A DNA stretch of 64,000 nucleotides from Thomasclavelia sp. Lineage in GTDB: Bacteria > Bacillota_I > Bacilli_A > Erysipelotrichales > Coprobacillaceae. Numbering within the stretch: position 1 is the first letter of the stretch; each line of letters starts with the position of its first letter. Positions 15,634-37,454 of the stretch are shown one piece after another. The position numbers were made by a program, and so were the translations under genes. The stretch lies in contig JAQVWN010000001.1 of NCBI GenBank assembly GCA_028749475.1, forward strand, positions 79,945 to 143,944, written 5' to 3'. The notes beneath the pieces were generated by a model that saw only the letters and a list, made by a program, of their open reading frames with translations, was not told the origin of the DNA and did not search any database.

Positions 15634-16473
15634 ATGAAATTATTAGTAACAGGATATAAAGGACAACTTGGATATGATGTTGTCAATGAAGCAAAATCAA
15701 GAAACATCGAAGCTATTGGAGTTGATATTGATGAAATGGATATCACTGATAAGGCTTCTGTAAATAAAGTAATAAAAGAAGGGCACTACGATGCTGTAGT
15801 TCATTGTGCAGCCTATACAGCTGTAGATAAAGCTGAAGATGACATAGATACTTGTCGTAAAGTAAATGCTGATGGAACTAAAAATATCGTAGAAGTATGT
15901 AAAGAACTTAATATTCCAATTATGTATTTTAGTACTGATTATGTTTTCGATGGAGAAGGAACTTCTCCATGGAAAGAATATGATAAAAGAAATCCTTTAA
16001 ATGTATATGGAGTAACTAAAGCTGAAGGTGAAGAATATGTTGAAGCATATCCAAAACACTTCATTATTAGAATTGCTTGGGTCTTTGGTAAAAATGGGAA
16101 TAATTTTATAAAGACAATGCTTCGACTTGGAAAAGAAAGAGGAGCTGTAAGTGTAGTTAATGATCAAATAGGTAATCCAACATATACTTATGATTTAGCT
16201 AAGTTAGTAGTAGATATGATTCAAACTGATAAATATGGAAAATATCATGCAACTAATTCTGGAGACTTCATTAGTTGGTATGATTTTGCATGTGAAATAT
16301 TCAAACAAGCAGGACTTGATGTGGAAGTCACTCCTGTTGATAGCAATACTTTCCCAGCTAAAGCAAAAAGACCACATAATTCAAGAATGAATCAAACTAA
16401 GTTAGATGATAATGGGTTTAAACGTCTTCCTTCATGGCAAGATGCTTTAAGTAGATATTTGAAAGAATTATAA
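15634..16473 (+). CDS. rfbD: dTDP-4-dehydrorhamnose reductase
   Basis: MKLLVTGYKGQLG, AAYTAVDKAE, STDYVFDG and YGVTKAEGE motifs typical of RmlD. 279 aa. Confidence 0.92.
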   Translation: MKLLVTGYKGQLGYDVVNEAKSRNIEAIGVDIDEMDITDKASVNKVIKEGHYDAVVHCAAYTAVDKAEDDIDTCRKVNADGTKNIVEVCKELNIPIMYFSTDYVFDGEGTSPWKEYDKRNPLNVYGVTKAEGEEYVEAYPKHFIIRIAWVFGKNGNNFIKTMLRLGKERGAVSVVNDQIGNPTYTYDLAKLVVDMIQTDKYGKYHATNSGDFISWYDFACEIFKQAGLDVEVTPVDSNTFPAKAKRPHNSRMNQTKLDDNGFKRLPSWQDALSRYLKEL

Positions 16474-19966: not shown

Positions 19967-21751
19967 ATGAAAATAAAAAGCGCCAAAAATTCAGTTAAAG
20001 AATTTTTACTAAAGTTAGCTAAAAGACCTGAAACGTATATTATACTTGTGGGAATTATACTTAGATTTATACTAGCGTATAAAGTGGGATTCCATTATTA
20101 TTCAGCACAGGGCTATGATGATAATCTTTTGGCTTCGTATGCTTTTCCTTCACATTGGACAAATCCTTCAATTAATTCTTTGCTTAAGACTATGTCATTC
20201 CCATTACTATTGGATCTGGCTTATGTCTTACATATAGATTACGCATCATTATTATGTATTATTTGGGTTATTACAGCTTTAACTGTATATAAGACATGTT
20301 CCTATATTTCTAATAAGAGAGTTCTAAGCATATTTGCATTTTTATATACTTTGTATTTTCCAACCGCGTTTGAAAGTTGGATGGGTACTAGACTATATAG
20401 AAATGCAATAATTGCTCCATTTACCATTATTCTTATTAGTATATTACTATTAATATTCTTTAAAATTAAGAGAAATGAATATTCAAATAAAGGATTAATA
20501 TGCAATGGTTTATTATTGGGATGTGTATTTTCTTTCTCTTATTATATAAAAGAAGATGGGTTATGGATGTTAGCTGTATTATTATTTTTTATTGTGTGTT
20601 ACTTAGGTTACTTAACATTTAATTTTTTTAAAAAAGAAAAAAATCGTAGAAAATTTATAATTTTTACTATTTCTATATTTATACCATTAATGTTTTTTGG
20701 TACTACTACTATTGCGTATAAACAAGTTAACAAACATTTCTTTGGAGTCGCCGAAGTTGAAACAAGAAATGGTGGCGAATTAGGAAAATATGTTGCCAAT
20801 GTTTATAAAATAGAATCAAATAATCGAGACTATAAACATTGGGCACCAAAGGATGCAATTATAAAGTCTTTTAAAGCATCCAAGACACTTAGTAAATACC
20901 CAAAGTTATTGAATAGTATTCTCCACTCTAGTTGGTACAATGGTAATATTGAAAAAAATCCAATTGAAGGGGACTTTTATACTTGGGTTTTAAGATCATC
21001 GCTATCAGAAACTAAAATATGGAAATCAGAAAAACAAATTAATGATTTGTTTAAGAAAGTAAACTCAGAGTTAAGTGAAGCTTTCAAATCAGGGGAACTA
21101 AAAAAAGATAATAAAATTCAATTGTTTTCTTCTGCAGGTGGAAGAACAATGAAAGAGATATATACATTATTCCCTATAGTTCGAGATTCTTTCGAGGAGG
21201 CTATTGCATTGGATTCTTATGCTCCTGGTTCAATTGTAGGAGAATCATTAGATAAAGAAAATACTGAAGCAACTATGAGGCTTACAAGGACTAATTATTT
21301 AATGGATTATAATTATGATGGTACTTTAGTTAATAGTGAACAAGCAAATAAAGTGATTACTTATATATTTGATATATATAGTGTTTTAAATCCAATATTA
21401 TTTTTTTTAGCTATTATAATGGCGATTTATCAAGTACTACGATTACTAGTGAATTTTAAAAATGTTAAAAGCAATATTTCTAAATGGAGCGATAGCATTA
21501 TAAAAATGCTTATGATATGTGTTTTATTTGGAGTTGGGATAGCTTATGCTTTTTCAATTAGTTGGTTTGATCAATTTTTATTAAATGGAACTAGGCAAAA
21601 CAATTTTTATATTCAAAATTTTTATACAATTGCCCTTCCTGGTATTTTGTTAGTAATATATATGTTAGGACTTGATCTACTGTTTGAAAATGTTAAAAAC
21701 ATTTTTTCAAAATTTCGTAATAACGAGAACAAAACTAAATCTATAGAATAA
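19967..21751 (+). CDS. Polytopic membrane protein, candidate GT-C (ArnT/PMT-like) glycosyltransferase
   Basis: 594 aa. YDDNLL acidic motif in the loop right after TM1, as in GT-C enzymes. Multiple TM segments plus a soluble region of about 200 aa. Follows the GtrB/GtrA pair. Confidence 0.55.
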   Translation: MKIKSAKNSVKEFLLKLAKRPETYIILVGIILRFILAYKVGFHYYSAQGYDDNLLASYAFPSHWTNPSINSLLKTMSFPLLLDLAYVLHIDYASLLCIIWVITALTVYKTCSYISNKRVLSIFAFLYTLYFPTAFESWMGTRLYRNAIIAPFTIILISILLLIFFKIKRNEYSNKGLICNGLLLGCVFSFSYYIKEDGLWMLAVLLFFIVCYLGYLTFNFFKKEKNRRKFIIFTISIFIPLMFFGTTTIAYKQVNKHFFGVAEVETRNGGELGKYVANVYKIESNNRDYKHWAPKDAIIKSFKASKTLSKYPKLLNSILHSSWYNGNIEKNPIEGDFYTWVLRSSLSETKIWKSEKQINDLFKKVNSELSEAFKSGELKKDNKIQLFSSAGGRTMKEIYTLFPIVRDSFEEAIALDSYAPGSIVGESLDKENTEATMRLTRTNYLMDYNYDGTLVNSEQANKVITYIFDIYSVLNPILFFLAIIMAIYQVLRLLVNFKNVKSNISKWSDSIIKMLMICVLFGVGIAYAFSISWFDQFLLNGTRQNNFYIQNFYTIALPGILLVIYMLGLDLLFENVKNIFSKFRNNENKTKSIE

Positions 21752-21755
21752 TTGT

Positions 21756-21787
21756 AAGAAGGTATTGTTGAAAACAATACCTTCTTA
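21756..21787 (+). terminator. Strong hairpin after the GT-C-like gene (probable terminator)
   Basis: Perfect 14-bp stem AAGAAGGTATTGTT-GAAA-AACAATACCTTCTT, followed by an interrupted T-rich tract. Confidence 0.65.
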
Positions 21788-21790
21788 TTA

Positions 21791-21799
21791 TGTTATAAT
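21791..21799 (+). promoter_or_regulatory. Extended -10 promoter element (TGTTATAAT) 6 nt upstream of the MerR-fusion ATG
   Basis: TG-n-TATAAT at 21791-21799. ATG at 21806 with no Shine-Dalgarno between them, which implies a leaderless or nearly leaderless mRNA. Confidence 0.45.
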
Positions 21800-21805
21800 T
21801 CTTTT

Positions 21806-22966
21806 ATGAACAATAATTACTACACATCAGGTAAGTTTGCCAAAATGGCAAATGTAACAATTAGAACAATTAGATATTACGATAAAATAGGTTTGTTAAA
21901 ACCTAGTTTTATCGGAGAAAATAAGTATCGAATGTATACTAATAATGATTTAATTAAACTTCAAAGAATTATTTTCTTAAAACAATTAGGGTTTTCTTTA
22001 GAAGAAATATTTCCAATGGTGATAAATAATGATAATAAAGACTTTGAATATAATATTAATATGCAGATTAATCTTATCAATCAACAAATAGAACATCTTC
22101 AAACAATTAAAGAAAGTTTGCAAAGTGCTAGTGAACTAGCTGTTGCCGGAGAAGTTAATTTAGATGAAATGATTAAACTAGTTAAAGTAACTAATATGGC
22201 TAGTGATCTTGTTCAACAATACCGTAACTCTAATAACTTAAATGTTAGAATGTCTTTACATGATAAGTATTCAAAATCAAAAATATCTTGGTTTGATTGG
22301 ATTTATAATACAATTGATATTAAAGATAAAGATGTTTTAGATGTGGGTTGTGGAAATGGTAGATTATGGTTTAATCGTGATATCAAAACTAAAAGATTAG
22401 TATTAACTGATAAATCTAAAGGAATGATTAGTGATGCTAAAAAGGTATTAGGCGATAAATATGAGTATAATGTTTGTGACTTACAGTCATTACCATATGA
22501 TGACAATAGCTATGACGTTGTCATAGCTAATCATATGTTGTTTTATATGAAGGATATCGATAAGGCTTTAGAGGAAATAAAAAGAGTTTTAAAGCCTAAA
22601 GGAATACTATATTGTAGTACGTATGGTAAAGATCATATGAAAGAGATTACGGAAATGGTTAAAGAATTCGATCCTCGAATTACTCTCGCCAACATATCTT
22701 TATATGATATATTTGGTTTAGATAATGGGAAGGAAATTCTTTTAAAACATTTTTCTAATGTTAAAAAAGTAATTCATGATGATTATTTAATAGTTGATAA
22801 TTATCAACCTATTGTAGATTATATTATTAGTTGTCACGGAAACCAAAATGAAATCATTGGTAATAGAGTTGTTGAATTTAATAAATTTATAGAAAGTAAA
22901 TTTAATAAAGGAACAATTAGAATAACTAAAGATGCTGGGATGTTTATTGTAAAAAATGATAAATAA
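21806..22966 (+). CDS. MerR-family HTH regulator fused to a class I SAM-dependent methyltransferase domain
   Basis: N-terminus YTSGKFAKMANVTIRTIRYYDKIGLLKPS (MerR HTH), then a coiled-coil. C-terminal half has VLDVGCGNGRLW (motif I), LTDKS, VIANHMLFYM and LKPKGILY methyltransferase motifs. Confidence 0.85.
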   Translation: MNNNYYTSGKFAKMANVTIRTIRYYDKIGLLKPSFIGENKYRMYTNNDLIKLQRIIFLKQLGFSLEEIFPMVINNDNKDFEYNINMQINLINQQIEHLQTIKESLQSASELAVAGEVNLDEMIKLVKVTNMASDLVQQYRNSNNLNVRMSLHDKYSKSKISWFDWIYNTIDIKDKDVLDVGCGNGRLWFNRDIKTKRLVLTDKSKGMISDAKKVLGDKYEYNVCDLQSLPYDDNSYDVVIANHMLFYMKDIDKALEEIKRVLKPKGILYCSTYGKDHMKEITEMVKEFDPRITLANISLYDIFGLDNGKEILLKHFSNVKKVIHDDYLIVDNYQPIVDYIISCHGNQNEIIGNRVVEFNKFIESKFNKGTIRITKDAGMFIVKNDK

Positions 22967-22979
22967 ATATAATTATTGC

Positions 22980-23010
22980 TTGACAGTGACCTAAGGTCAC
23001 TGTTTATTAT
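22980..23010 (+). promoter_or_regulatory. Promoter of rfbACB with a 19-bp spacer filled by a perfect palindrome (MerR-type operator candidate; alternatively a terminator hairpin)
   Basis: TTGACA 22980-22985, TATTAT 23005-23010. Palindrome ACAGTGACCT-A-AGGTCACTGT at 22983-23003. AAAGGAGG RBS at 23025-23032 and rfbA ATG at 23041. Confidence 0.6.
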
Positions 23011-23040
23011 ATAGATGTATACTAAAAGGAGGTACTAATA

Positions 23041-23922
23041 ATGAAAGGTATCGTATTAGCTGGAGGATCAGGAACTAGATTATATCCTCTAACACAAGTA
23101 ACAAGTAAACAATTACTACCAATTTATGACAAACCAATGATTTATTATCCACTAAGTATTTTAATGGAAGCAGGTATTAAAGATATTCTTATTATCTCTA
23201 CACCTGATGATACACCAAGATTTGAAGAATTACTTGGCGATGGCCATCAATATGGAATCAATCTTCAATATAAAGTGCAACCAAGTCCGGATGGACTTGC
23301 TCAAGCTTTCTTAATTGGAGAAGAATTCATCGATGGTGAAGCCTGTGCTATGATTTTAGGAGATAACATCTTCCATGGTCATGGATTAGAAAAGAGATTA
23401 AGACAAGCTGCAGGTAAAGAAGATGGTGCTACTGTCTTTGGTTATTATGTAGATGATCCAGAAAGATTTGGAATTGTTGAATTCGATGAAAATGGCAAAG
23501 CCATTTCAATCGAAGAAAAACCAGAACATCCAAAATCTAATTATTGTGTAACAGGTTTATATTTCTATGATAAACATGTTGTAGAATATGCTAAACAAAT
23601 TAAGCCTTCACCTCGTGGGGAATTAGAAATTACTGATTTAAATAAAATCTATTTAGAAAAAGGTAATTTAAATGTTGAATTATTAGGACAAGGATTCACA
23701 TGGTTAGATACAGGAACTCATGAAAGTTTAGTTGATGCAACTAACTTTGTAAAAACTGTAGAAACTCATCAAAATAGAAAGATAGCTTGTCTAGAAGAAA
23801 TAGCTTATAACAATAAGTGGATTTCTAAAGAGCAATTAACTAAAGCTTATGAGTTGTATAAAAAGAATCAATATGGTAAATATTTAAAAGATGTTTTAGA
23901 TGGTAAATTTATAGATAAATAA
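23041..23922 (+). CDS. rfbA: Glucose-1-phosphate thymidylyltransferase
   Basis: [18 protein letters not shown]...[18 protein letters not shown] is the canonical RmlA N-terminus. 293 aa. Confidence 0.97.
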
Positions 23923-23932
23923 AGGAGTTAAA

Positions 23933-24508
23933 ATGAAAGCAATTAAAACAAAAATACCAGGAGTATTAATTATTGAAACAGATGTATTTGGAGATAACCG
24001 TGGTTATTTCACTCAAACATATTGTAAACCACAATATGAAGAAATAGGAGTAACAGTAGACTTTGTTCAAGATAACATGAGTTTTTCAGCTCAAGAAGGA
24101 ACACTTAGAGGATTACATTGGCAAAATCCGCCATATGCTCAAAGTAAACTAGTATCTTGTACTAAAGGAAAGGTAATTGATGTTGCCGTTGATATAAGAA
24201 AAGGTTCACCAACTTTTGGTGAATGGGTTTCAGTAGAATTAAGTGCTGAAAATCATCGTCAATTCTTTATCCCTCAAGGATTCGCTCATGGATTCTTAAC
24301 TCTTACACCAGATGTAGAGTTTAGATATAAAGTGGATAATGTTTATAACAAAGAATCTGAAGGTGGAATGCGTTATGATGATCCAACTGCAAATGTTGAT
24401 TGGGGATCATTACTTAATGGTATTGAACCAGTATTAAGTGAAAAAGATAAAGTAGGACCTACTTTAGAAAATTCTAAGAATAATTTTGTATATGAAGGAG
24501 ATAAATAA
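23933..24508 (+). CDS. rfbC: dTDP-4-dehydrorhamnose 3,5-epimerase
   Basis: FGDNRGYF, LRGLHWQ and FIPQGFAHGF motifs of RmlC. 191 aa. Confidence 0.95.
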   Translation: MKAIKTKIPGVLIIETDVFGDNRGYFTQTYCKPQYEEIGVTVDFVQDNMSFSAQEGTLRGLHWQNPPYAQSKLVSCTKGKVIDVAVDIRKGSPTFGEWVSVELSAENHRQFFIPQGFAHGFLTLTPDVEFRYKVDNVYNKESEGGMRYDDPTANVDWGSLLNGIEPVLSEKDKVGPTLENSKNNFVYEGDK

Positions 24509-25542
24509 TGAAAATTTTAGTAACAGGTGGTGCCGGATTTATAGGTGGAAACTTTGTTCACTATATGGTGAACAAGTATCCAGAAGATATGATTGTTAAC
24601 TTAGATAAGTTAACATATGCTGGTAACTTAGAAACATGTAAACCAGTAGAAGATAAACCAAATTATAAATTTGTTAAAGGAGATATCGCTGATCGTGATT
24701 TCATCTTTGATTTATTTGAAAAAGAAAAATTTGATATTGTAGTAAACTTTGCTGCAGAAAGTCATGTTGATAGAAGTATTGAAGAACCTGAAATATTTGT
24801 TAAAACAAATGTTATGGGTACTACTACTTTACTTGATGCTTGTAATAAATATGGTATTAAAAGATATCATCAAGTATCTACTGATGAAGTATATGGTGAT
24901 TTACCATTAGATCGTCCAGATTTATTCTTTACAGAAGAAACTCCACTTCATACAAGTAGCCCATATTCTTCTGCTAAAGCTAGCGCTGATTTATTTGTAT
25001 TAGCTTATCATCGTACATATGGTTTACCAGTTACAATTTCTAGATGTTCAAATAACTATGGACCATATCATTTCCCAGAAAAATTAATTCCATTAATTAT
25101 TTCTAGAGCATTAAATGATGAAACAATTCCAGTATATGGAACTGGTGAAAATGTTAGAGACTGGTTACATGTATATGATCACTGTGTTGCTATTGATTTA
25201 ATCATTAGAAAAGGACGCGTTGGTGAAGTATATAATGTAGGTGGACATAACGAAAGAACAAACCTAGAAGTAGTAAAAACAGTTTTACATACTTTAGGTA
25301 AATCTGAAGACTTAATCACTTATGTAAGTGATCGTAAAGGTCATGATATGCGTTATGCAATCGATCCTCATAAATTAGAAACTGAACTTGGATGGAAACC
25401 TAAATATAACTTTGATACTGGTATTGCTCAAACTATTCAATGGTATCTTGATAATAAAGAATGGTGGGAAAACATCATTTCTGGTGAATATCAAAACTAC
25501 TTTGAAAAAATGTATGTTGAAAAAGGTAGAGCAAAAGAATAA
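24508..25542 (+). CDS. rfbB: dTDP-glucose 4,6-dehydratase
   Basis: ILVTGGAGFIGGNF, AAESHVDRS and YSSAKASADL (YxxxK) motifs of RmlB. 344 aa. ATGA overlap with rfbC. Confidence 0.96.
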   Translation: MKILVTGGAGFIGGNFVHYMVNKYPEDMIVNLDKLTYAGNLETCKPVEDKPNYKFVKGDIADRDFIFDLFEKEKFDIVVNFAAESHVDRSIEEPEIFVKTNVMGTTTLLDACNKYGIKRYHQVSTDEVYGDLPLDRPDLFFTEETPLHTSSPYSSAKASADLFVLAYHRTYGLPVTISRCSNNYGPYHFPEKLIPLIISRALNDETIPVYGTGENVRDWLHVYDHCVAIDLIIRKGRVGEVYNVGGHNERTNLEVVKTVLHTLGKSEDLITYVSDRKGHDMRYAIDPHKLETELGWKPKYNFDTGIAQTIQWYLDNKEWWENIISGEYQNYFEKMYVEKGRAKE

Positions 25543-25548
25543 AACATT

Positions 25549-25586
25549 AATCTTCATAGCAAACTGTGCTATGAAGATTTTTATTT
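25549..25586 (+). terminator. Intrinsic terminator after rfbB
   Basis: 12-bp stem AATCTTCATAGC / GCTATGAAGATT with a 7-nt loop and a T-rich tail. Confidence 0.85.
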
Positions 25587-25633
25587 GAAATAATCGCTAG
25601 GTCATATATAATAATTACATCTAGGGGAATGAC

Positions 25634-26008
25634 ATGGGAAATAAAAAAGAATTATTTTTGTTTGGAATATCGGAATTGATTACCAATACATTAAATACAA
25701 TTATATATTTTGTTTTGCTTGTTAGTACTTTTTTAGGATCATTTATATCTAATTGTATTGCAGGATTAGCTTCAGCTAGCTTAGCTTATATCTTTAGCCG
25801 CTTTGTCGTATTTGAAAGTAACAGTGAAAACGTTGCAAGAGAGGCGACGACATTTATGATTGTAAGAATATCTCTTGGTTTATTAGATATTGTTTTAATG
25901 GGAGTATTAGTTGATCTTCACTTAATGGTTCCATTAGCATCAAAAATATTAGTAAATATATTTATTATTTATTTAAATTATTTGGCTAGTAAAAAATATG
26001 TATTTTAA
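25634..26008 (+). CDS. Second GtrA-family small membrane protein
   Basis: 124 aa, 4 TM. The C-terminal NYLASKKYVF motif resembles the GtrA family. Confidence 0.7.
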   Translation: MGNKKELFLFGISELITNTLNTIIYFVLLVSTFLGSFISNCIAGLASASLAYIFSRFVVFESNSENVAREATTFMIVRISLGLLDIVLMGVLVDLHLMVPLASKILVNIFIIYLNYLASKKYVF

Positions 26009-26021
26009 ATAATGAAATAAG

Positions 26022-26050
26022 AAACTTAATTAATAATTAAGTTTTTTTAT
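26022..26050 (+). terminator. Intrinsic terminator
   Basis: AAACTTAATTA / TAATTAAGTTT inverted repeat followed by T7. Confidence 0.65.
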
Positions 26051-26142
26051 TTTTCACACATTTAGGAAAAATAGACAATTTCATAATATTGTGTTGGAAA
26101 ATGGGAAAACTATGGTTATAATATATTTGTGGAGGTTTCATC

Positions 26143-28983
26143 ATGAAAAAAATCATTTCACTTACAGTTGCATTGTTAATGATATTTTCAATGACAACTT
26201 ATATAAATGCTACTGAAGATGATTCTTCAGGTGATACTAACGTATCTAATTTAGAGACAACTACTAATAGTAATGGGGAAACTGTAGTTGAAGTTCCTTT
26301 CTACGACGATAATGGAAATCTATACTATGAAGAAGTAGGAGATGGATCAGTAGATGAAGGTATCGCTAGTGCGAGAAGTGATGCTTTTAGTAGTGGAAGT
26401 ATACTAGTGAATTTTAATTACAATATTTCTTCTAGTATTACTACGTCTTATACTAATACAGTTTCAGGAGCGTCTGGATATTTACATGGCCAAGCAAATG
26501 CTGATGCTGTTTATCTTGGAACTGAAAATGGAAAAGTTAAATTTATGCAATCAGGAGTAATTGGACTTGTAGATGCATCTAAAGTTCAACTTGTTTCTGC
26601 ATTGAAATATTATGAAAGCTATTATATTTACGAAGGTAGTGGTTTTTACCATTATATTTGTACTGATGTAAATAATGCACCTGCTAGTAAAATACTGATA
26701 AGTAATAGTAAACCTGCTTATATAACTGCAGGTACTAAATACTATAGTTATGATGGTCACTATTTCTATACTAATTATGATACGATGACTACAAACTATA
26801 AGAGTAATAATCGTAATAATGCAGTAAATAAAAGTAGTCCTTTTTATAACTACTTCCAATATCTTTCAATGAGAAGTACAACTAGTTATTCTGCTTCTCA
26901 ACTTAATTCATATATTACTAAAGTTAAGGGAACTACAACTCAAATGTCTAACTCTGGTAGTAGTTTTATCAACTATCAAAATAAATATGGTGTTAATGCC
27001 TTATTATCTTTTGCAGTAGCTTGCAATGAAAGTGCCTATGGAACAAGCAACATTTCTAAAACTAAAAACAATCTATTTGGACTTAGTGTCTACGATAGTA
27101 ACACTGGAGCAGGTACTACCTATAATAGTGTTGATTCCTGTATTAAAGACTTTATGGAAAGATGGATGTCAACAGGATATTTAGATACAAGTGATTGGCG
27201 TTACAACGGAGCTAACCTTGGAGATAAAGGTGGAGGTTGTAATGTTCAATATGCTAGTGGATCTACTTGGGGAGAAACAGCTGCTAGTATCGCCCTTAGA
27301 ATAGATAACTATCTAGGCGGAAATGAAAAAAGTAAATATACGATTGCTATCAGTGATACCTTAAATAGTGGATATAGTAATGTCTCCATTACTTCTTCAC
27401 CTGGAGGAAGTAATCTTTATAGTCAGGGTAAACATCCTAACTATCCAGTAATAGTGATAGGATCTTCAGGTAATTACTATAAAATTCAAAGTGATAGTGT
27501 ATTAAATTCTGCAGGTACTGCTATCGATAAAACAGGAACCAGTTATAATTACAGTAAAGATGTTGGTTATGTAAGTAAAAACACCTTTACCATTGCCTAT
27601 TCAGGTACTTATACAGAATCTACTACTCCAACTCTTACATATCAAGGATATACTGCTGGTAGCTGGTTAACATCAGTACAAGCAGGAGAAATTGCTGGAA
27701 CAACCGGGCAATCTAAAAAATTAGAGGCCTTTAAAATTAATTTAGATACTGGCTCATATGGTGGAGGAATTAATTATCAAGCGCATGTATCAAATGTCGG
27801 TTGGCAGACTGCTAGGAGCAGCGGCCAAACAGCTGGTATTGAAGGTTCTAATCAAATAGAAGCAATTAAAATAAGTTTAACAGGTAATATATCTAATTAT
27901 TATGATATATATTATCGAGTTCATACTTCAAAAATTGGATGGCTAGGTTGGACCAAGAATGGAGCATCAGCAGGGACTACAAGTTTTGGATTGTCTGCTG
28001 AAGCGATAGAAGTAAAACTAGTGTCCAAAGGTGCTAGTGCACCTGGAAGTACTGATAATTCTTATTATTCAAATGATATCAATTATTCAACGCATGTTTC
28101 GGGCATTGGTTGGCAATCCAATGTTAGTAATGGAACAACAGCTGGAACAACAGGTCAATCAAAAGCAGTTGAAGCATTTAAAGTATCGATGAATAGTTAC
28201 TACAAAGGCAATGTTGTGTATAAAGCCCATGTTCAAAATGTTGGTTGGCAAAGTGAAACTTCGAATGGAAATGTAGCCGGAACAACAGGAAAGTCTCTTA
28301 GAGTAGAAGCTTTTACCATTAATTTAACAGATGAATTAGAAGAGAATTACGATGTTTACTATCGAGCATATGTTCAAAACTATGGATGGCTTGATTGGTC
28401 TTCTAATGGCGCTAAAGCCGGAACAGTTGGATATGGTTACCGAGTTGAAGCAATGCAAGTTAAGATAGTAAATAAAGGAGCAGCGGCACCTGGTGCTACA
28501 ACTAATCCATTCAAAGTAAGTAAAATAACATACTCAACTCACGTTCAAACTATTGGTTGGCAAAGCAGTGCTGTAGAAGGACAAACTTCAGGTACTACTG
28601 GTAAAAGTTATAGGCTTGAAGGTATAAAAATTAACTTAAGTAATCTTTCAGAAATAAATGAAGCAGGTGGAATATCTTATTCAACTCATGTTCAAAATTA
28701 TGGTTGGCAAAATTATGTTAGTAATGGAGCCCTTTCTGGAACTACTGGTAAGTCTTTAAGGCTTGAAGCTATAAAAATCAAACTTACTGGTGACATTGCA
28801 AATGACTATGATGTTTATTATCGTGTTCATGCTCAAAACTATGGATGGATGGGCTGGACTAAAAATAATGAAATGGCTGGAACTAGTGGCTATGGGTATC
28901 GTTTAGAAGCTATTGAAATTCAAGTTGTTAAAAAAGGTGAAACATCACCAGGAAATACAAGTAATTCATATAAAATTAAATAA
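26143..28983 (+). CDS. Secreted peptidoglycan hydrolase: GH73 N-acetylglucosaminidase domain plus 9 C-terminal ChW (clostridial hydrophobic W) repeats
   Basis: Signal peptide MKKIISLTVALLMIFSMTTYINA. GH73-like LSFAVACNESAYGTS...NNLFGL motif. Nine repeats of about 45 aa with the pattern Y-x-x-H-V-Q-N-x-G-W ... G-T-[TS]-G ... R-[LV]-E-A-[IF]-x-[IV]. Confidence 0.8.
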   Translation: MKKIISLTVALLMIFSMTTYINATEDDSSGDTNVSNLETTTNSNGETVVEVPFYDDNGNLYYEEVGDGSVDEGIASARSDAFSSGSILVNFNYNISSSITTSYTNTVSGASGYLHGQANADAVYLGTENGKVKFMQSGVIGLVDASKVQLVSALKYYESYYIYEGSGFYHYICTDVNNAPASKILISNSKPAYITAGTKYYSYDGHYFYTNYDTMTTNYKSNNRNNAVNKSSPFYNYFQYLSMRSTTSYSASQLNSYITKVKGTTTQMSNSGSSFINYQNKYGVNALLSFAVACNESAYGTSNISKTKNNLFGLSVYDSNTGAGTTYNSVDSCIKDFMERWMSTGYLDTSDWRYNGANLGDKGGGCNVQYASGSTWGETAASIALRIDNYLGGNEKSKYTIAISDTLNSGYSNVSITSSPGGSNLYSQGKHPNYPVIVIGSSGNYYKIQSDSVLNSAGTAIDKTGTSYNYSKDVGYVSKNTFTIAYSGTYTESTTPTLTYQGYTAGSWLTSVQAGEIAGTTGQSKKLEAFKINLDTGSYGGGINYQAHVSNVGWQTARSSGQTAGIEGSNQIEAIKISLTGNISNYYDIYYRVHTSKIGWLGWTKNGASAGTTSFGLSAEAIEVKLVSKGASAPGSTDNSYYSNDINYSTHVSGIGWQSNVSNGTTAGTTGQSKAVEAFKVSMNSYYKGNVVYKAHVQNVGWQSETSNGNVAGTTGKSLRVEAFTINLTDELEENYDVYYRAYVQNYGWLDWSSNGAKAGTVGYGYRVEAMQVKIVNKGAAAPGATTNPFKVSKITYSTHVQTIGWQSSAVEGQTSGTTGKSYRLEGIKINLSNLSEINEAGGISYSTHVQNYGWQNYVSNGALSGTTGKSLRLEAIKIKLTGDIANDYDVYYRVHAQNYGWMGWTKNNEMAGTSGYGYRLEAIEIQVVKKGETSPGNTSNSYKIK
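27634..28980 (+). repeat. Array of 9 ChW repeat modules arranged as 3 triplets (coding)
   Basis: Each triplet is two GWQ-type modules followed by one GW[LM]GW-type module, and ends in V-x-K-G-x-x-A/S-P-G. Confidence 0.8.
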
Positions 28984-34559: not shown

Positions 34560-34649
34560 AGTTACAAGATAATAGCCAAAATTATCGAAAGATAATGACG
34601 GAAAGCTATAGGGCCTGTAAAATGGCAGCCAGTTGCATATAATTGTATG
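34560..34649 (+). promoter_or_regulatory. Candidate c-di-GMP-I (GEMM-I)-like riboswitch aptamer
   Basis: AGCCAAA-ATTATC-GAAA-GATAAT-GACGGAAAGC-TATAGGGCC...GGCAGCCAGTTGC. The GAAA-capped 6-bp hairpin is flanked by CAAA and GACG-N-AAAGC, at the same spacing as my recollection of the Vc2 core GGCAAA-CCAUUC-GAAA-GAGUGG-GACGCAAAGCC...GGUAGC..GUUACC. Confidence 0.45.
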
Positions 34650-34674
34650 GGGCACTGGGGGTGTCCTTATTTTT
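34650..34674 (+). terminator. Leader terminator (putative riboswitch expression platform)
   Basis: GGGCAC-tgggg-GTGTCC (one G-U pair), followed by TTATTTTT, 53 nt before the ATG. Confidence 0.55.
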
Positions 34675-34727
34675 ATGTTCATTCGAAGTTCGAACTATTA
34701 TCGCAACTATCAAAAGGAGCGATAATT

Positions 34728-37454
34728 ATGAAAACATCCCTAAGAAAAGTACTCAGTGCAGTACTAGTATCAATGATGATACTTTCAATTAGCACTATTG
34801 GTGTCAACGCTGAGGGCGATGACACAACATCTGAAGATTATATCAAAGGTCATGAATTGACTGAAGAAGAAATCAAAGAACAACAAAAAAATGAACCTCA
34901 AAACTTACCTACTGTATCAGTTCCTGATGAGAAAACTGTTCAATCATCAAGAAGCAGTGATACATATGTACCAAGTAGTACGTATGCATCAAGTTATGAT
35001 GCAAGAAACTATGGTTTAGTTACTTCTGTAAAAAACCAAGGTAGTTCAGGTACATGTTGGGCATATGCTACAACTGCAGCTATGGAAACAGCTGCTGTTA
35101 AAGCTGGCCTTTCAAACAATGGTATTAATCTTTCAGAACAACATTTAGCCTATTTCTATTACAACAGAGTTGATAATGGATTAGGTAATACAAATAGTGA
35201 TTACAATTCAGTTCAAAGTGGTAAGAACTATTTAAGCAATGGTGGAAACACTAGAATGGTATTAAATGCATTAAGTGGTCATCAAGGTATGGCTAATGAA
35301 TCAACTGCATCAACTACTAATTCATACAAAACATATTCATCAAGTCTTTGTTACAAAGATCAAGTTCAAATGACTAATGGATATAATGTATGTCCTGGTT
35401 ATGTAAAAGATAATATTGATTCAGTAAAATCTGCAATATCAAAATATGGTAGTGCAGCAGCTATGTTTACATGGAATTCAAGTTATATGAATTACTCAAC
35501 TGCTGCCTATAGTTATCCTAGTACTTCAACTAACCATGCAATCCAAATTATTGGTTGGAATGATAACTATAGTAAATCAAACTTCAATAGTAATTCAGGA
35601 GTAACAAGCAATGGTGCTTGGATTTGTAAAAACTCATGGGGAACTAGTTGGGGAAAAAGTGGATATTTCTATATTTCATATCAAGATAAATCATTATCAA
35701 ATGTTGTATCTTACCAAGCAGGTAATGCTAATGCATATGACTATGAATATTATTATGATGGAACTGGTTATTTAGGTACACAATATATTCAAGCTGGTAA
35801 ATCAGCTGCTAATATTTATACAGTCAATGGAAATTCAACTGGTGAAACATTAAAAGCTGTTAACGTTGGATTCGCTAGTTCAAATGTTCAATATAGTATT
35901 CAAGCTTATGCTAATATTACAAATGTTTCTGATCCTACAAGTGGAACACCAATGTTTAGTACACCAGTTACAGGAACTACAACATTCTCAGGATTTTATA
36001 ACATTGCAGTAAACACAAATGCCATAATGCAAAAAGGAACTAAATATTCTATTGTAGTTACAGTAGAAGAAGGAACTAGTTTCTATTCAGATAAATCATA
36101 CAGTTATTCATGGACATCAGGAAACAATGCAACTGCATACAATCAAAGTTTCTTCCAAAATGGCAATGGTTGGTATGATTATAAAACATACAATGATTGT
36201 AGTTTAAGAATTAAAGCCTACACAAATAAAAACTCATTTACTATTCCTAGTTCAGCAGTTCAAATTGGTTCTAATAATACTGCTGATCATAAATTAGGAA
36301 CTAACGTTGCAGTTAATATTGATTCAAGCAAAGTTCAATCTGGATCAACATTTAAAGTAAATGTATCTAAAGGTTCTTCAAAAGTCCTTACTAATAATAC
36401 TTATTCATCAAATACAAGTTATACTTTTACTACTCCATCAACTGGTACTTATGATGTTAGTGTAAGTGCAGCTGATACCTATGGTAATACAGCTAATACA
36501 AACAGCACTTACCAAATTACTTCAAATGGATATGTTCCAACAATATCTTATCGTGGACATGTTCAAAATATTGGTTGGCAAGCATATGTTTCAAATGGAG
36601 CAACTGCTGGTACAATGGGAAAATCTTTAAGAGTAGAAGCCTTCAATATGAATATATCTAATACTGGATATGCTGGAAATCTTGAATATTGTTCTCATGT
36701 TCAAAACATTGGATGGCAAAGTTATGTAAGTAATGGTGCAATGTCCGGAACAAGTGGTAAATCATTTAGAGTTGAAGCTATGAAGATAAGACTTACTGGT
36801 GAAGTGGCTAATCATTATGATGTATACTATAGAGTCTATGCTCAAAACATCGGTTGGATGGGATGGGCTAAAGATGGTGAACAAGCAGGTACTGCTGGTT
36901 ATAGTTACCGTCTTGAAGCTATCCAAGTAAAACTTGTTGAAAAGAATGATACAGTAGCTCTTGCAAATTGTGCAACAACTACTGAAGCATTTAAACAAAG
37001 TCATCTTGCATATCAAACACATGTTCAAAATGTTGGTTGGCAAGGAAAAGTAAAAGAAGGTTTAATGTCAGGAACAAGTGGCAAATCACTTAGACTTGAA
37101 GGAATAAAAATTAATCTAGAAAATGTTTCAGAAGAAGGAAATATTGAGTATTCAACTCATGTTCAAAACATCGGTTGGCAAGGATATGCAAAAAATGGTG
37201 GAATGTCAGGAACTAGCGGTAAGTCACTTAGACTTGAGGCTATAAAGATTCGTTTGACAGGGGAAATGGCAAATACTTATGACATCTACTATTGTGTCCA
37301 TGCTCAAAACTTTGGTTGGATGGGATGGGCAAAAAATGGTGCTTCTGCAGGTACTGCTGGTTATGGTTACCGTTTAGAGGCTATCAAGATTGTCCTAGTT
37401 AAGAAAGGAGAAGCTGCTCCCGGTTCAACTATTAATTCCTTTAAACAAAAATAA
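34728..37454 (+). CDS. Secreted papain-family (C1A) cysteine protease with a central beta-rich region and 6 C-terminal ChW repeats
   Basis: Signal peptide MKTSLRKVLSAVLVSMMILSISTIGVNA. Catalytic motifs QGSSGTCWAYA (Cys codon 35055-35057), NHAIQIIGWNDN and KNSWGTSWGKSGYFYISY. AAAGGAG RBS. The ORF-track start at 34647 lies inside the leader terminator. Confidence 0.85.
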   Translation: MKTSLRKVLSAVLVSMMILSISTIGVNAEGDDTTSEDYIKGHELTEEEIKEQQKNEPQNLPTVSVPDEKTVQSSRSSDTYVPSSTYASSYDARNYGLVTSVKNQGSSGTCWAYATTAAMETAAVKAGLSNNGINLSEQHLAYFYYNRVDNGLGNTNSDYNSVQSGKNYLSNGGNTRMVLNALSGHQGMANESTASTTNSYKTYSSSLCYKDQVQMTNGYNVCPGYVKDNIDSVKSAISKYGSAAAMFTWNSSYMNYSTAAYSYPSTSTNHAIQIIGWNDNYSKSNFNSNSGVTSNGAWICKNSWGTSWGKSGYFYISYQDKSLSNVVSYQAGNANAYDYEYYYDGTGYLGTQYIQAGKSAANIYTVNGNSTGETLKAVNVGFASSNVQYSIQAYANITNVSDPTSGTPMFSTPVTGTTTFSGFYNIAVNTNAIMQKGTKYSIVVTVEEGTSFYSDKSYSYSWTSGNNATAYNQSFFQNGNGWYDYKTYNDCSLRIKAYTNKNSFTIPSSAVQIGSNNTADHKLGTNVAVNIDSSKVQSGSTFKVNVSKGSSKVLTNNTYSSNTSYTFTTPSTGTYDVSVSAADTYGNTANTNSTYQITSNGYVPTISYRGHVQNIGWQAYVSNGATAGTMGKSLRVEAFNMNISNTGYAGNLEYCSHVQNIGWQSYVSNGAMSGTSGKSFRVEAMKIRLTGEVANHYDVYYRVYAQNIGWMGWAKDGEQAGTAGYSYRLEAIQVKLVEKNDTVALANCATTTEAFKQSHLAYQTHVQNVGWQGKVKEGLMSGTSGKSLRLEGIKINLENVSEEGNIEYSTHVQNIGWQGYAKNGGMSGTSGKSLRLEAIKIRLTGEMANTYDIYYCVHAQNFGWMGWAKNGASAGTAGYGYRLEAIKIVLVKKGEAAPGSTINSFKQK
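36543..37451 (+). repeat. Array of 6 ChW repeat modules arranged as 2 triplets (coding)
   Basis: Same GWQ, GWQ, GWMGW triplet order as in the GH73 protein. The last triplet is, by my rough visual alignment, about 70-75% identical in protein to the last triplet of the 26143-28983 product. Confidence 0.8.

Follow-up and report, generated by a model that had tools for sequence, protein, structure and literature searches.

A MerR-methyltransferase fusion protein and a conserved MerR-class operator at the rmlACB promoter of Thomasclavelia and other gut Firmicutes

Activators of the MerR family work by underwinding promoter DNA. MerR, CueR, ZntR and SoxR have a winged helix-turn-helix (HTH) with a long coiled-coil helix behind it, and their operator dyad lies inside a promoter spacer of 19-20 bp, while BmrR and EcmrR join the MerR HTH to a large C-terminal domain (GyrI-like) that binds small molecules. 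The systems closest to the one described here are those of TipAL (Streptomyces), Mta (Bacillus subtilis) and AlbA (Klebsiella), whose operators have a ACNCTNACG half-site overlapping the 3' end of the -35 element, an ACGT-N-ACGT core, a spacer of 19 bp and a centre at position 14. For AlbA, a MerR regulator of the TipAS type, systematic evolution of ligands by exponential enrichment (SELEX) gave ACNCTNACG as the binding motif; the complex solved by cryo-electron microscopy has the 19-bp spacer compacted to the length of 17 bp, and a promoter variant with a 17-bp spacer gives higher basal transcription (bioRxiv 10.64898/2026.09.21.753095). Here we describe a locus from Thomasclavelia sp., a member of the class Erysipelotrichia, contained in a 64-kb stretch of DNA with 30% GC (the whole stretch is called the window below). 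A gene for a MerR-type HTH fused to a class I S-adenosylmethionine (SAM) methyltransferase domain lies directly upstream of rmlACB, and between the two is a promoter with the geometry just outlined. Judging from sequence comparisons, we consider it quite probable that the fusion is a MerR-family regulator with a methyltransferase-derived ligand domain, and that it acts on the rmlACB promoter through the dyad.

The fusion gene occupies positions 21806-22966 of the forward strand, on which the promoter elements and the rmlACB genes given below also lie; it encodes 386 amino acids (aa), starts with MNNNYYTSGKFAKMANVTIRTIRYYDKIGLL and has its stop codon at 22964-22966. A protein 100% identical to the product is encoded in a Thomasclavelia sp. 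metagenome-assembled genome. Thirteen nt after the stop codon comes the -35 hexamer TTGACA (22980-22985), followed after 19 nt by the -10 hexamer TATTAT (23005-23010), so placed that transcription would be expected to start near 23017. A perfect 10+1+10 dyad, ACAGTGACCT-A-AGGTCACTGT (22983-23003), overlaps the 3' end of the -35 and fills the spacer; its centre falls at position 14 counted from the first T of the -35, and in the window the operator takes the form ACAGTGACC-T-A-A-GGTCACTGT. The rmlA ATG (23041) is found 30 nt past the -10, preceded by a GGAGG Shine-Dalgarno sequence at 23028-23032. These coordinates had been read in a preliminary description of the locus and hold without change. 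The palindrome is unique within the window, with no match at three or fewer mismatches in 100 shuffles. When the window was scanned with a 32-nt position weight matrix (PWM) built from relatives, the site scored 42.9 bits; everything else remained below 8 bits and no second operator was found. No Rfam family matched at E<=1 across 21500-26200, a search that covered known RNA elements in the leader.

Relatives of the fusion were collected in a scan of one genome per species, which returned at least 593; the architecture is thus not rare. The best 80 loci of these at least 593 relatives share 42-54% identity and come from Erysipelotrichales, Lachnospiraceae and other Clostridia. The comparison set comprised 82 non-duplicate sources encoding the fusion, namely 81 loci and the window. 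A strict search pattern, TTGAC-N4-AC-S-T-N-A-S-GT, in which no -10 position takes part, occurs exactly once in 53 of 83 sources, against a chance expectation of about 0.1 by our own estimate from information content. TTGAC is common to all 53 by construction, being demanded by the pattern. The -10 letters T26, A27, T28 and T31 are present in 53, 53, 52 and 53 of these instances, respectively, always at the 19-nt spacing; T8 and A20, likewise outside the pattern and placed symmetrically around position 14, vary little or not at all. The logo of the family reads ACagTgACGT-W-ACGTcAc, with ACagTgACG at positions 4-12, for which many Erysipelotrichales have ACCCTTACG; an A-rich tract at -9 to -4 is conserved as well. 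The preliminary description had allowed that TTTATT, at a spacing of 17 nt, could serve as an ordinary -10. This alternative is disfavoured because the logo is invariant at T26, A27, T28 and T31, just where a -10 hexamer spaced by 19 nt has its characteristic letters; at positions 24-29 the logo gives TTTATN, without conserved A2 and T6.

A looser search, with the 32-nt PWM at 30 bits or more and rml genes mapped by tblastn, found the operator in 63 of the 82 sources, distributed over two classes, Erysipelotrichia and Clostridia. In 42 of these sources it lies upstream of rmlA, in 5 upstream of rmlB and in 12 upstream of a fusion gene at the head of a fusion-rml operon; the remaining 4 have it before the fusion gene and again before rmlA. 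No source has it in front of anything else. The MerR-style promoter proposed in the preliminary description is strongly supported by this tally. In the nearest relative, a metagenome contig (L001) whose fusion is 72% identical in amino acids, glycosyltransferase genes, fusion gene and rmlA follow each other in the same order; 28 nt spanning the -35 and the dyad, TTGACAGTGACCTAAGGTCACTGTTTAT, are identical to the window while the flanks differ, and the -10, here TATGAT, keeps the 19-nt spacing. The operator stays beside the rml genes where these lie 0.4-2.3 kb from the regulator gene (L021, L027, L031, L060 and L074), and stays beside rmlA in L039, where rmlA is convergent, on the opposite strand. 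In two loci (L048 and L055) packing is the tightest possible: the TGA stop codon of the regulator forms part of the TTGAC of the rml promoter. Four loci of the Lacrimispora/Hungatella type (L037, L051, L064 and L079) have two operators, one before the fusion gene and one before rmlA, and would appear to represent an autoregulated, two-promoter version of the circuit.

At the protein level, both halves of the fusion recognized in the preliminary description are confirmed by Pfam. Residues 6-68 (nt 21821-22009) match MerR_1 (PF13411; 62.4 bits against a cut-off of 21.6, 4.3e-17) and MerR (PF00376; 49.6 bits against 28.2, 3.3e-13), MerR-DNA-bind (PF09278) staying, at 21.8 bits, under its cut-off of 25.4. 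Residues ~171-287 match Methyltransf_11, 25, 31, 12 and 23 above cut-off, most strongly Methyltransf_11 (8e-22). The AlphaFold2 monomer model (mean predicted local distance difference test score, pLDDT, 83) consists of the HTH, a 37-residue putative dimerisation helix at aa 77-113 (nt 22034-22144; pLDDT ~66-69), a linker (aa 125-142) predicted with low confidence, and a confidently predicted Rossmann domain that carries a subdomain at its C-terminal end, the methyltransferase part as defined by Pfam, AlphaFold2 and Foldseek extending over aa ~143-386 (nt 22232-22963). Winged HTH and predicted long helix recall MerR, CueR, ZntR and SoxR; in contrast to these, the fusion has no metal-binding loop or Fe-S motif, its effector part being a complete enzyme-type domain. 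In a sequence search of the PDB, the nearest matches of the N-terminus are 3hh0, which is a MerR protein from Bacillus, TipAN (2vz4), MtaN (1jbg) and BmrR, with CueR also matched; matches to the BmrR and EcmrR type reach 1e-13 over the HTH. Unlike BmrR and EcmrR, however, the fusion ends in a Rossmann methyltransferase, and operator half-sites and regulon differ too. No match to TipAS (PF07739) was found in the fusion by Pfam, the C-terminus being Methyltransf_11/25/31; with a class I SAM-methyltransferase fold of ~245 aa in this position, it has the DNA-binding class in common with TipAL, Mta and AlbA but is not itself a protein of the TipAL type. No NCBIfam model reached its cut-off, those for ZntR, CueR and MerR falling far below theirs; therefore, no curated family covers the protein.

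The methyltransferase domain has close relatives of its own. Free-standing proteins of ~265 aa, annotated as 'class I SAM-dependent methyltransferase' or 'UbiE-like', are 35-50% identical over their full length to the C-terminal 262 aa of the fusion. A search with these 262 residues gave 589 representative clusters (E<=1e-30). Of the 150 best, 105 have the length of a stand-alone protein and 29 that of a fusion, a few of the short ones being fragments of fusions. The free-standing proteins, none functionally characterised, share the fold of the C-terminal domain; by contrast, they have no DNA-binding domain and, in the four contexts examined, lie apart from genes for rml or wall polysaccharide. 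In fusions, motif I (VLDVGCGNG, with G181, G183 and G185) and D202 are conserved, and the positions conserved in at least 90% of them include the motif I glycines, D202, D237, N242/H243, R148, H152, W165, W188, H277, E280, Y339 and S342. Because the same residues are equally conserved in the stand-alone homologs, R148, H152, W165, W188, D202, H243, H277, E280, Y339 and S342 among them, the SAM site and the pocket appear to be still under selection in the fusions, a pattern compatible with catalytic activity. Foldseek matched the C-terminal domain to many methyltransferases with a probability of 1.0. The top 50 neighbours in the PDB are generic small-molecule methyltransferases such as LahSB, YcgJ, RebM/AtmM, OxaG, TmtA/GtmA, JHAMT and BioC, at 13-22% identity; kinship to dTDP-sugar methyltransferases, which would have implied sensing of the end product, is unsupported by them. 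Nor do gene neighbourhoods suggest a family of wall-polysaccharide enzymes: four stand-alone homologs on long contigs lie among genes for GNAT, APH, MFS, HD-hydrolase and HTH proteins, with rml genes absent. In two of these four contexts (L203 and L206) a YfbR-like HD-domain gene is found 50 nt to 1.7 kb downstream. YfbR belongs to a 5'-deoxynucleotidase family, so that this neighbour may give a weak hint of a nucleotide-related substrate, or else may be a coincidence.

The operator could be compared with those of other MerR regulators by scanning metagenome contigs with a degenerate motif that included the 19-nt spacing. At least 120 matches were obtained, on contigs of 29-74% GC. In most of the matches listed, the motif precedes by 30-90 nt a gene of ~250 aa that matches the MerR part of the fusion only; four of those listed lie ahead of rmlA and one ahead of a full-length fusion gene. 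Seven of seven sampled genes behind the motif encode MerR_1 plus TipAS by Pfam. Ahead of such MerR_1 plus TipAS genes (L083-L202, 29%-74% GC), TTGAC-NN-T-N-ACGT-W-ACGT-N-A with an exact 19-nt spacer is nearly unchanged. By its sequence, the window operator thus belongs to a generic TipAL/Mta/AlbA class, because the same motif precedes MerR_1 plus TipAS genes and agrees with the SELEX motif of AlbA, and this assignment fits the placing of TipAN and MtaN among the PDB neighbours of the protein. A single operator grammar seems to be common to very distant bacteria. Membership in the class strengthens the promoter reading of the element; being generic, however, the operator alone cannot name its regulator. 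For the same reason, an attempt to derive a regulon from the operator gave mostly TipAL-type autoregulated genes, hence a class-generic set and no regulon specific to the fusion.

Several observations weigh against the circuit proposed here. Folded as RNA, the window dyad forms a hairpin of about -14.5 kcal/mol followed by UUUAUUAU, a U-tract that is interrupted, and part of the perfection of the dyad may serve termination. Nineteen of the 82 fusion-carrying sources have no operator in the DNA examined; 14 of these have no rml gene there, and in the other five the locus is truncated or the rml genes lie upstream of the regulator. Conversely, two metagenome contigs (L118 and L150) carry the operator and rmlA with no fusion gene within the DNA examined. 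An operator as generic as this could also be a target for some TipAL-like paralog encoded in another part of the genome. The top 50 Foldseek matches of the C-terminal domain in the PDB contain no substrate-specific neighbour, and rml genes were not found beside the stand-alone methyltransferase homologs in the four contexts available.

The hairpin raises the question, already asked in the preliminary description, of whether the palindrome is the intrinsic terminator of the regulator gene. Were it only that, the promoter boxes would be chance occurrences in AT-rich DNA and rmlACB would be served by read-through or by an ordinary promoter. The terminator scan indeed called 22982-23004 terminator-like (10-bp stem, tail TATTATATAG), nearby terminators are likewise AT-rich hairpins with weak T-tails, and in this region of 30% GC pairs of promoter-like hexamers turn up no more often than shuffling predicts (48 observed, 48.7 expected). 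Across the instances of the operator, however, the predicted folding energy ranges from 0 to -14.1 kcal/mol with a median of -4.8, the window having the strongest hairpin of all, while -35, half-sites, 19-nt spacing and -10 recur together in 63 sources from two classes. Position argues in the same direction. A pure terminator was expected to follow the regulator gene whatever lay downstream; the opposite is seen, since the element tracks the 5' ends of rml genes: 12 sources have it ahead of the regulator gene, five loci have it at a distance of 0.4-2.3 kb from that gene, and L039 has it on the opposite strand. Moreover, the same element precedes TipAL-type genes, where there is nothing that needs termination. 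In relatives, then, what is conserved is a sequence and not a hairpin that stays where the preceding gene ends; variable hairpin strength, conserved sequence and rml-tracking position are what a protein-binding promoter element would show, and a purely terminating role is ruled out on comparative grounds. For the window itself we regard it as most improbable. The terminator-like hairpin is real nonetheless, and that the long 10+1+10 dyad of the window doubles as the terminator of the regulator gene, insulating rmlACB from read-through, is a possibility we take seriously while leaning towards a dyad without this second role.

Granted a promoter of the MerR class, its regulator might still be some other paralog of the TipAL/Mta type, the fusion serving mainly as a small-molecule or glycan methyltransferase whose HTH is autoregulatory or vestigial. 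Cross-recognition would be plausible for an operator type that is generic for MerR_1 plus TipAS proteins across phyla; the SAM-site and pocket residues are conserved as in free-standing enzymes, and the two contigs with operator and rmlA but no fusion gene could be accounted for in this way. Against this, 63 of 82 sources keep regulator, operator and rml genes in physical linkage despite many rearrangements, and 16 have the operator in front of the fusion gene, an autoregulatory arrangement that is typical of the MerR class to which TipAL, Mta and AlbA belong. Residues of the HTH are highly conserved, T18, R20, T21, R23, Y25 and D26 being invariant in the fusion alignment. No second MerR domain occurs elsewhere in the window. 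As stand-alone homologs had no rml neighbours in the four contexts, the rml link belongs to the fusion and not to the enzyme family. Finally, residue 19 (window numbering), which lies just before the recognition helix RTIRYYD, varies with operator bases 7 and 9 among the fusions of L001-L082: I pairs with [GA]TGAC and E or Q mostly with CTTAC, while for L the half-site is CTTAC, GTTCC or CTAAC; L004 and L074 are exceptions. The correspondence is no more than suggestive of co-evolution between protein and site, as it is confounded by phylogeny. From the linkage through rearrangements and the autoregulatory layout, together with the lack of another MerR domain in the window and the suggestive match at residue 19, we infer that the fusion is the cognate regulator and binds the operator; another paralog in this role seems unlikely to us.

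In the circuit we propose, a dimer of the fusion would bind the dyad at 22983-23003, centred on 22993. The 19-bp spacer would by itself hold the rmlACB promoter weak; the effector-bound fusion would underwind or kink the spacer, bringing -35 and -10 into alignment for sigma-A RNA polymerase, and transcription of rmlACB would then be driven from about 23017. Action as an activator, and not as a repressor, is presumed here by analogy with the MerR family. The output would be the first three enzymes of dTDP-L-rhamnose synthesis, for a rhamnose-containing wall polysaccharide encoded around the locus. We infer that a small-molecule methyltransferase was recruited as a ligand module in the place that TipAS has in TipAL-type proteins. 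The signal could be SAM or S-adenosylhomocysteine (SAH), a methyl acceptor, or both, and occupancy by SAM/SAH and/or a small methyl acceptor would toggle the fusion between poorly and strongly activating conformations.

Alternatively, the fusion could bind the operator without any signalling, as a mere repressor or as an activator that is constitutive and needs no ligand, the methyltransferase domain being, for example, a module that stabilises the dimer. Even when ligand-free, TipAL and AlbA are reported to act as activators (bioRxiv 10.64898/2026.09.21.753095), and no ligand can be inferred from the Foldseek neighbours. Strong purifying selection on the SAM-binding and pocket residues is nevertheless hard to square with an inert module, and the large C-terminal domains known to be characterised in this MerR class are all ligand sensors; we hold this alternative to be very unlikely. 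Reaching further than the proposed circuit, we tentatively envisage the fusion as a 'trigger enzyme', that is an active small-molecule methyltransferase in which SAM/SAH or substrate occupancy gates promoter remodelling, with the palindrome acting both as operator and as RNA terminator; we would not rate this version as likely. If it were true, precursor synthesis for wall rhamnan in many gut Lachnospiraceae and Erysipelotrichales would be coupled to the status of the methyl cycle or, alternatively, to a specific metabolite or xenobiotic methylated by the same protein.

Little has been described, to our knowledge, of how Firmicutes control the transcription of their rml genes. A full-text literature search, outside of which most subscription journals fell, yielded no paper in which a MerR regulator is connected with rml genes or with rhamnose wall polysaccharides, in agreement with the view taken in the preliminary description that MerR control of rml is not a described circuit. 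The same search, with the same coverage, found nothing relevant on MerR-methyltransferase fusions beyond a passing mention of the Vibrio cholerae protein VCA0264 ('MerR1'), said to belong to the MerR family and to have a methyltransferase domain at its C-terminus (PMC9662190). VCA0264 is likened to the fusion by this description only; it differs in being proteobacterial, with target and signal uncharacterised and no rml link reported (PMC9662190). This accords with the earlier statement that no characterised fusion of this kind is known, with the qualification, given above, that the architecture itself is not rare. Within a known class of mechanism, the novelty lies in the effector module, in the regulon and in the breadth of conservation, and the pairing of MerR-methyltransferase and rml genes looks like a real, undescribed control circuit.

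Rhamnose-rich wall polysaccharides, which are fed by dTDP-rhamnose, are major and often essential surface polymers of Gram-positive bacteria, where they act as phage receptors and immunomodulators. Should the circuit prove true, more than 60 species of the abundant gut Lachnospiraceae and Erysipelotrichales, the gut Firmicutes in which the pairing recurs, would have a dedicated regulator for this supply, and one protein, one 21-bp site and one promoter would offer a handle on how commensals tune their surface. For the MerR field, a SAM-methyltransferase domain derived from an enzyme would be a new effector module for the TipAL/Mta/AlbA class of DNA-binding domains, and the class would be extended from drug responses to envelope biosynthesis, its target here being a biosynthetic housekeeping operon (rmlACB/D) in place of efflux or sequestration genes. 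Once a ligand is known, the promoter-regulator pair could become an inducible expression tool for gut anaerobes that are poorly tractable.

The expression signals of the regulator gene in the window differ from those of its nearest relative and of the TipAL group. A putative extended -10, TGtTATAAT (21791-21799), ends 6 nt before the ATG, and the gene has no Shine-Dalgarno sequence; for these two reasons a leaderless mRNA may be made. In L001 (72% identity), the fusion gene instead abuts the gene upstream and has AGGAG plus 7 nt. In contrast to TipAL, Mta and AlbA, the promoter of the regulator itself carries no operator in the window, as judged by the PWM scan. A short isoform such as TipAS, made from an internal start, is also not indicated: the fusion alignment shows no conserved internal start, the Met near aa 132 included, and this Met lacks an evident ribosome-binding site.

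The three genes downstream are identified by NCBIfam models, all of them passing the curated equivalog cut-offs: rmlA (rfbA; 23041-23922) encodes glucose-1-phosphate thymidylyltransferase (TIGR01207, 493.6 bits against 360.65), rmlC (23933-24508) dTDP-4-dehydrorhamnose 3,5-epimerase (TIGR01221, 218.6 bits against 155.75) and rmlB (24508-25542) dTDP-glucose 4,6-dehydratase (TIGR01181, 497.3 bits against 365.1). At 25549-25579 the terminator scan detected a hairpin whose stem has 13 bp, with TTTTATTT behind it; this is likely the terminator that closes the three-gene unit. The fourth gene of the pathway, rmlD (15634-16473), lies 6.5 kb upstream, within a block of glycosyltransferase genes and outside the unit behind the operator, and its control in this genome is apparently separate from that of rmlACB.

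Regulator and rmlACB form part of a single same-strand super-locus of ~34 kb for envelope glycopolymers, covering positions 1-34336 of the window. Besides rmlD, it encodes many glycosyltransferases of family 2 (GT2), a UDP-galactopyranose mutase, a Wzx-like flippase, an ABC-2 exporter of the Wzm/Wzt type, two GtrA-like proteins, an IspD-like cytidylyltransferase, an epimerase, a DUF7657/DUF7654 protein, a DUF1972 glycosyltransferase and a protein of the sulfatase family. A hairpin with a perfect 16-bp stem at 21754-21788, terminator-like on both strands in the terminator scan, divides the regulator gene from the glycosyltransferase block upstream. Directly before this hairpin is an open reading frame of 594 aa (19967-21751) that has no match in Pfam or NCBIfam; its syntenic counterpart in L001 is a DUF2142 protein. 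Two very large wall proteins with ChW repeats are encoded at 26143-28983 and 34647-37454; one is a glucosaminidase with nine ChW repeats, and the other combines a papain-family C1 peptidase and a lectin-like domain with six.

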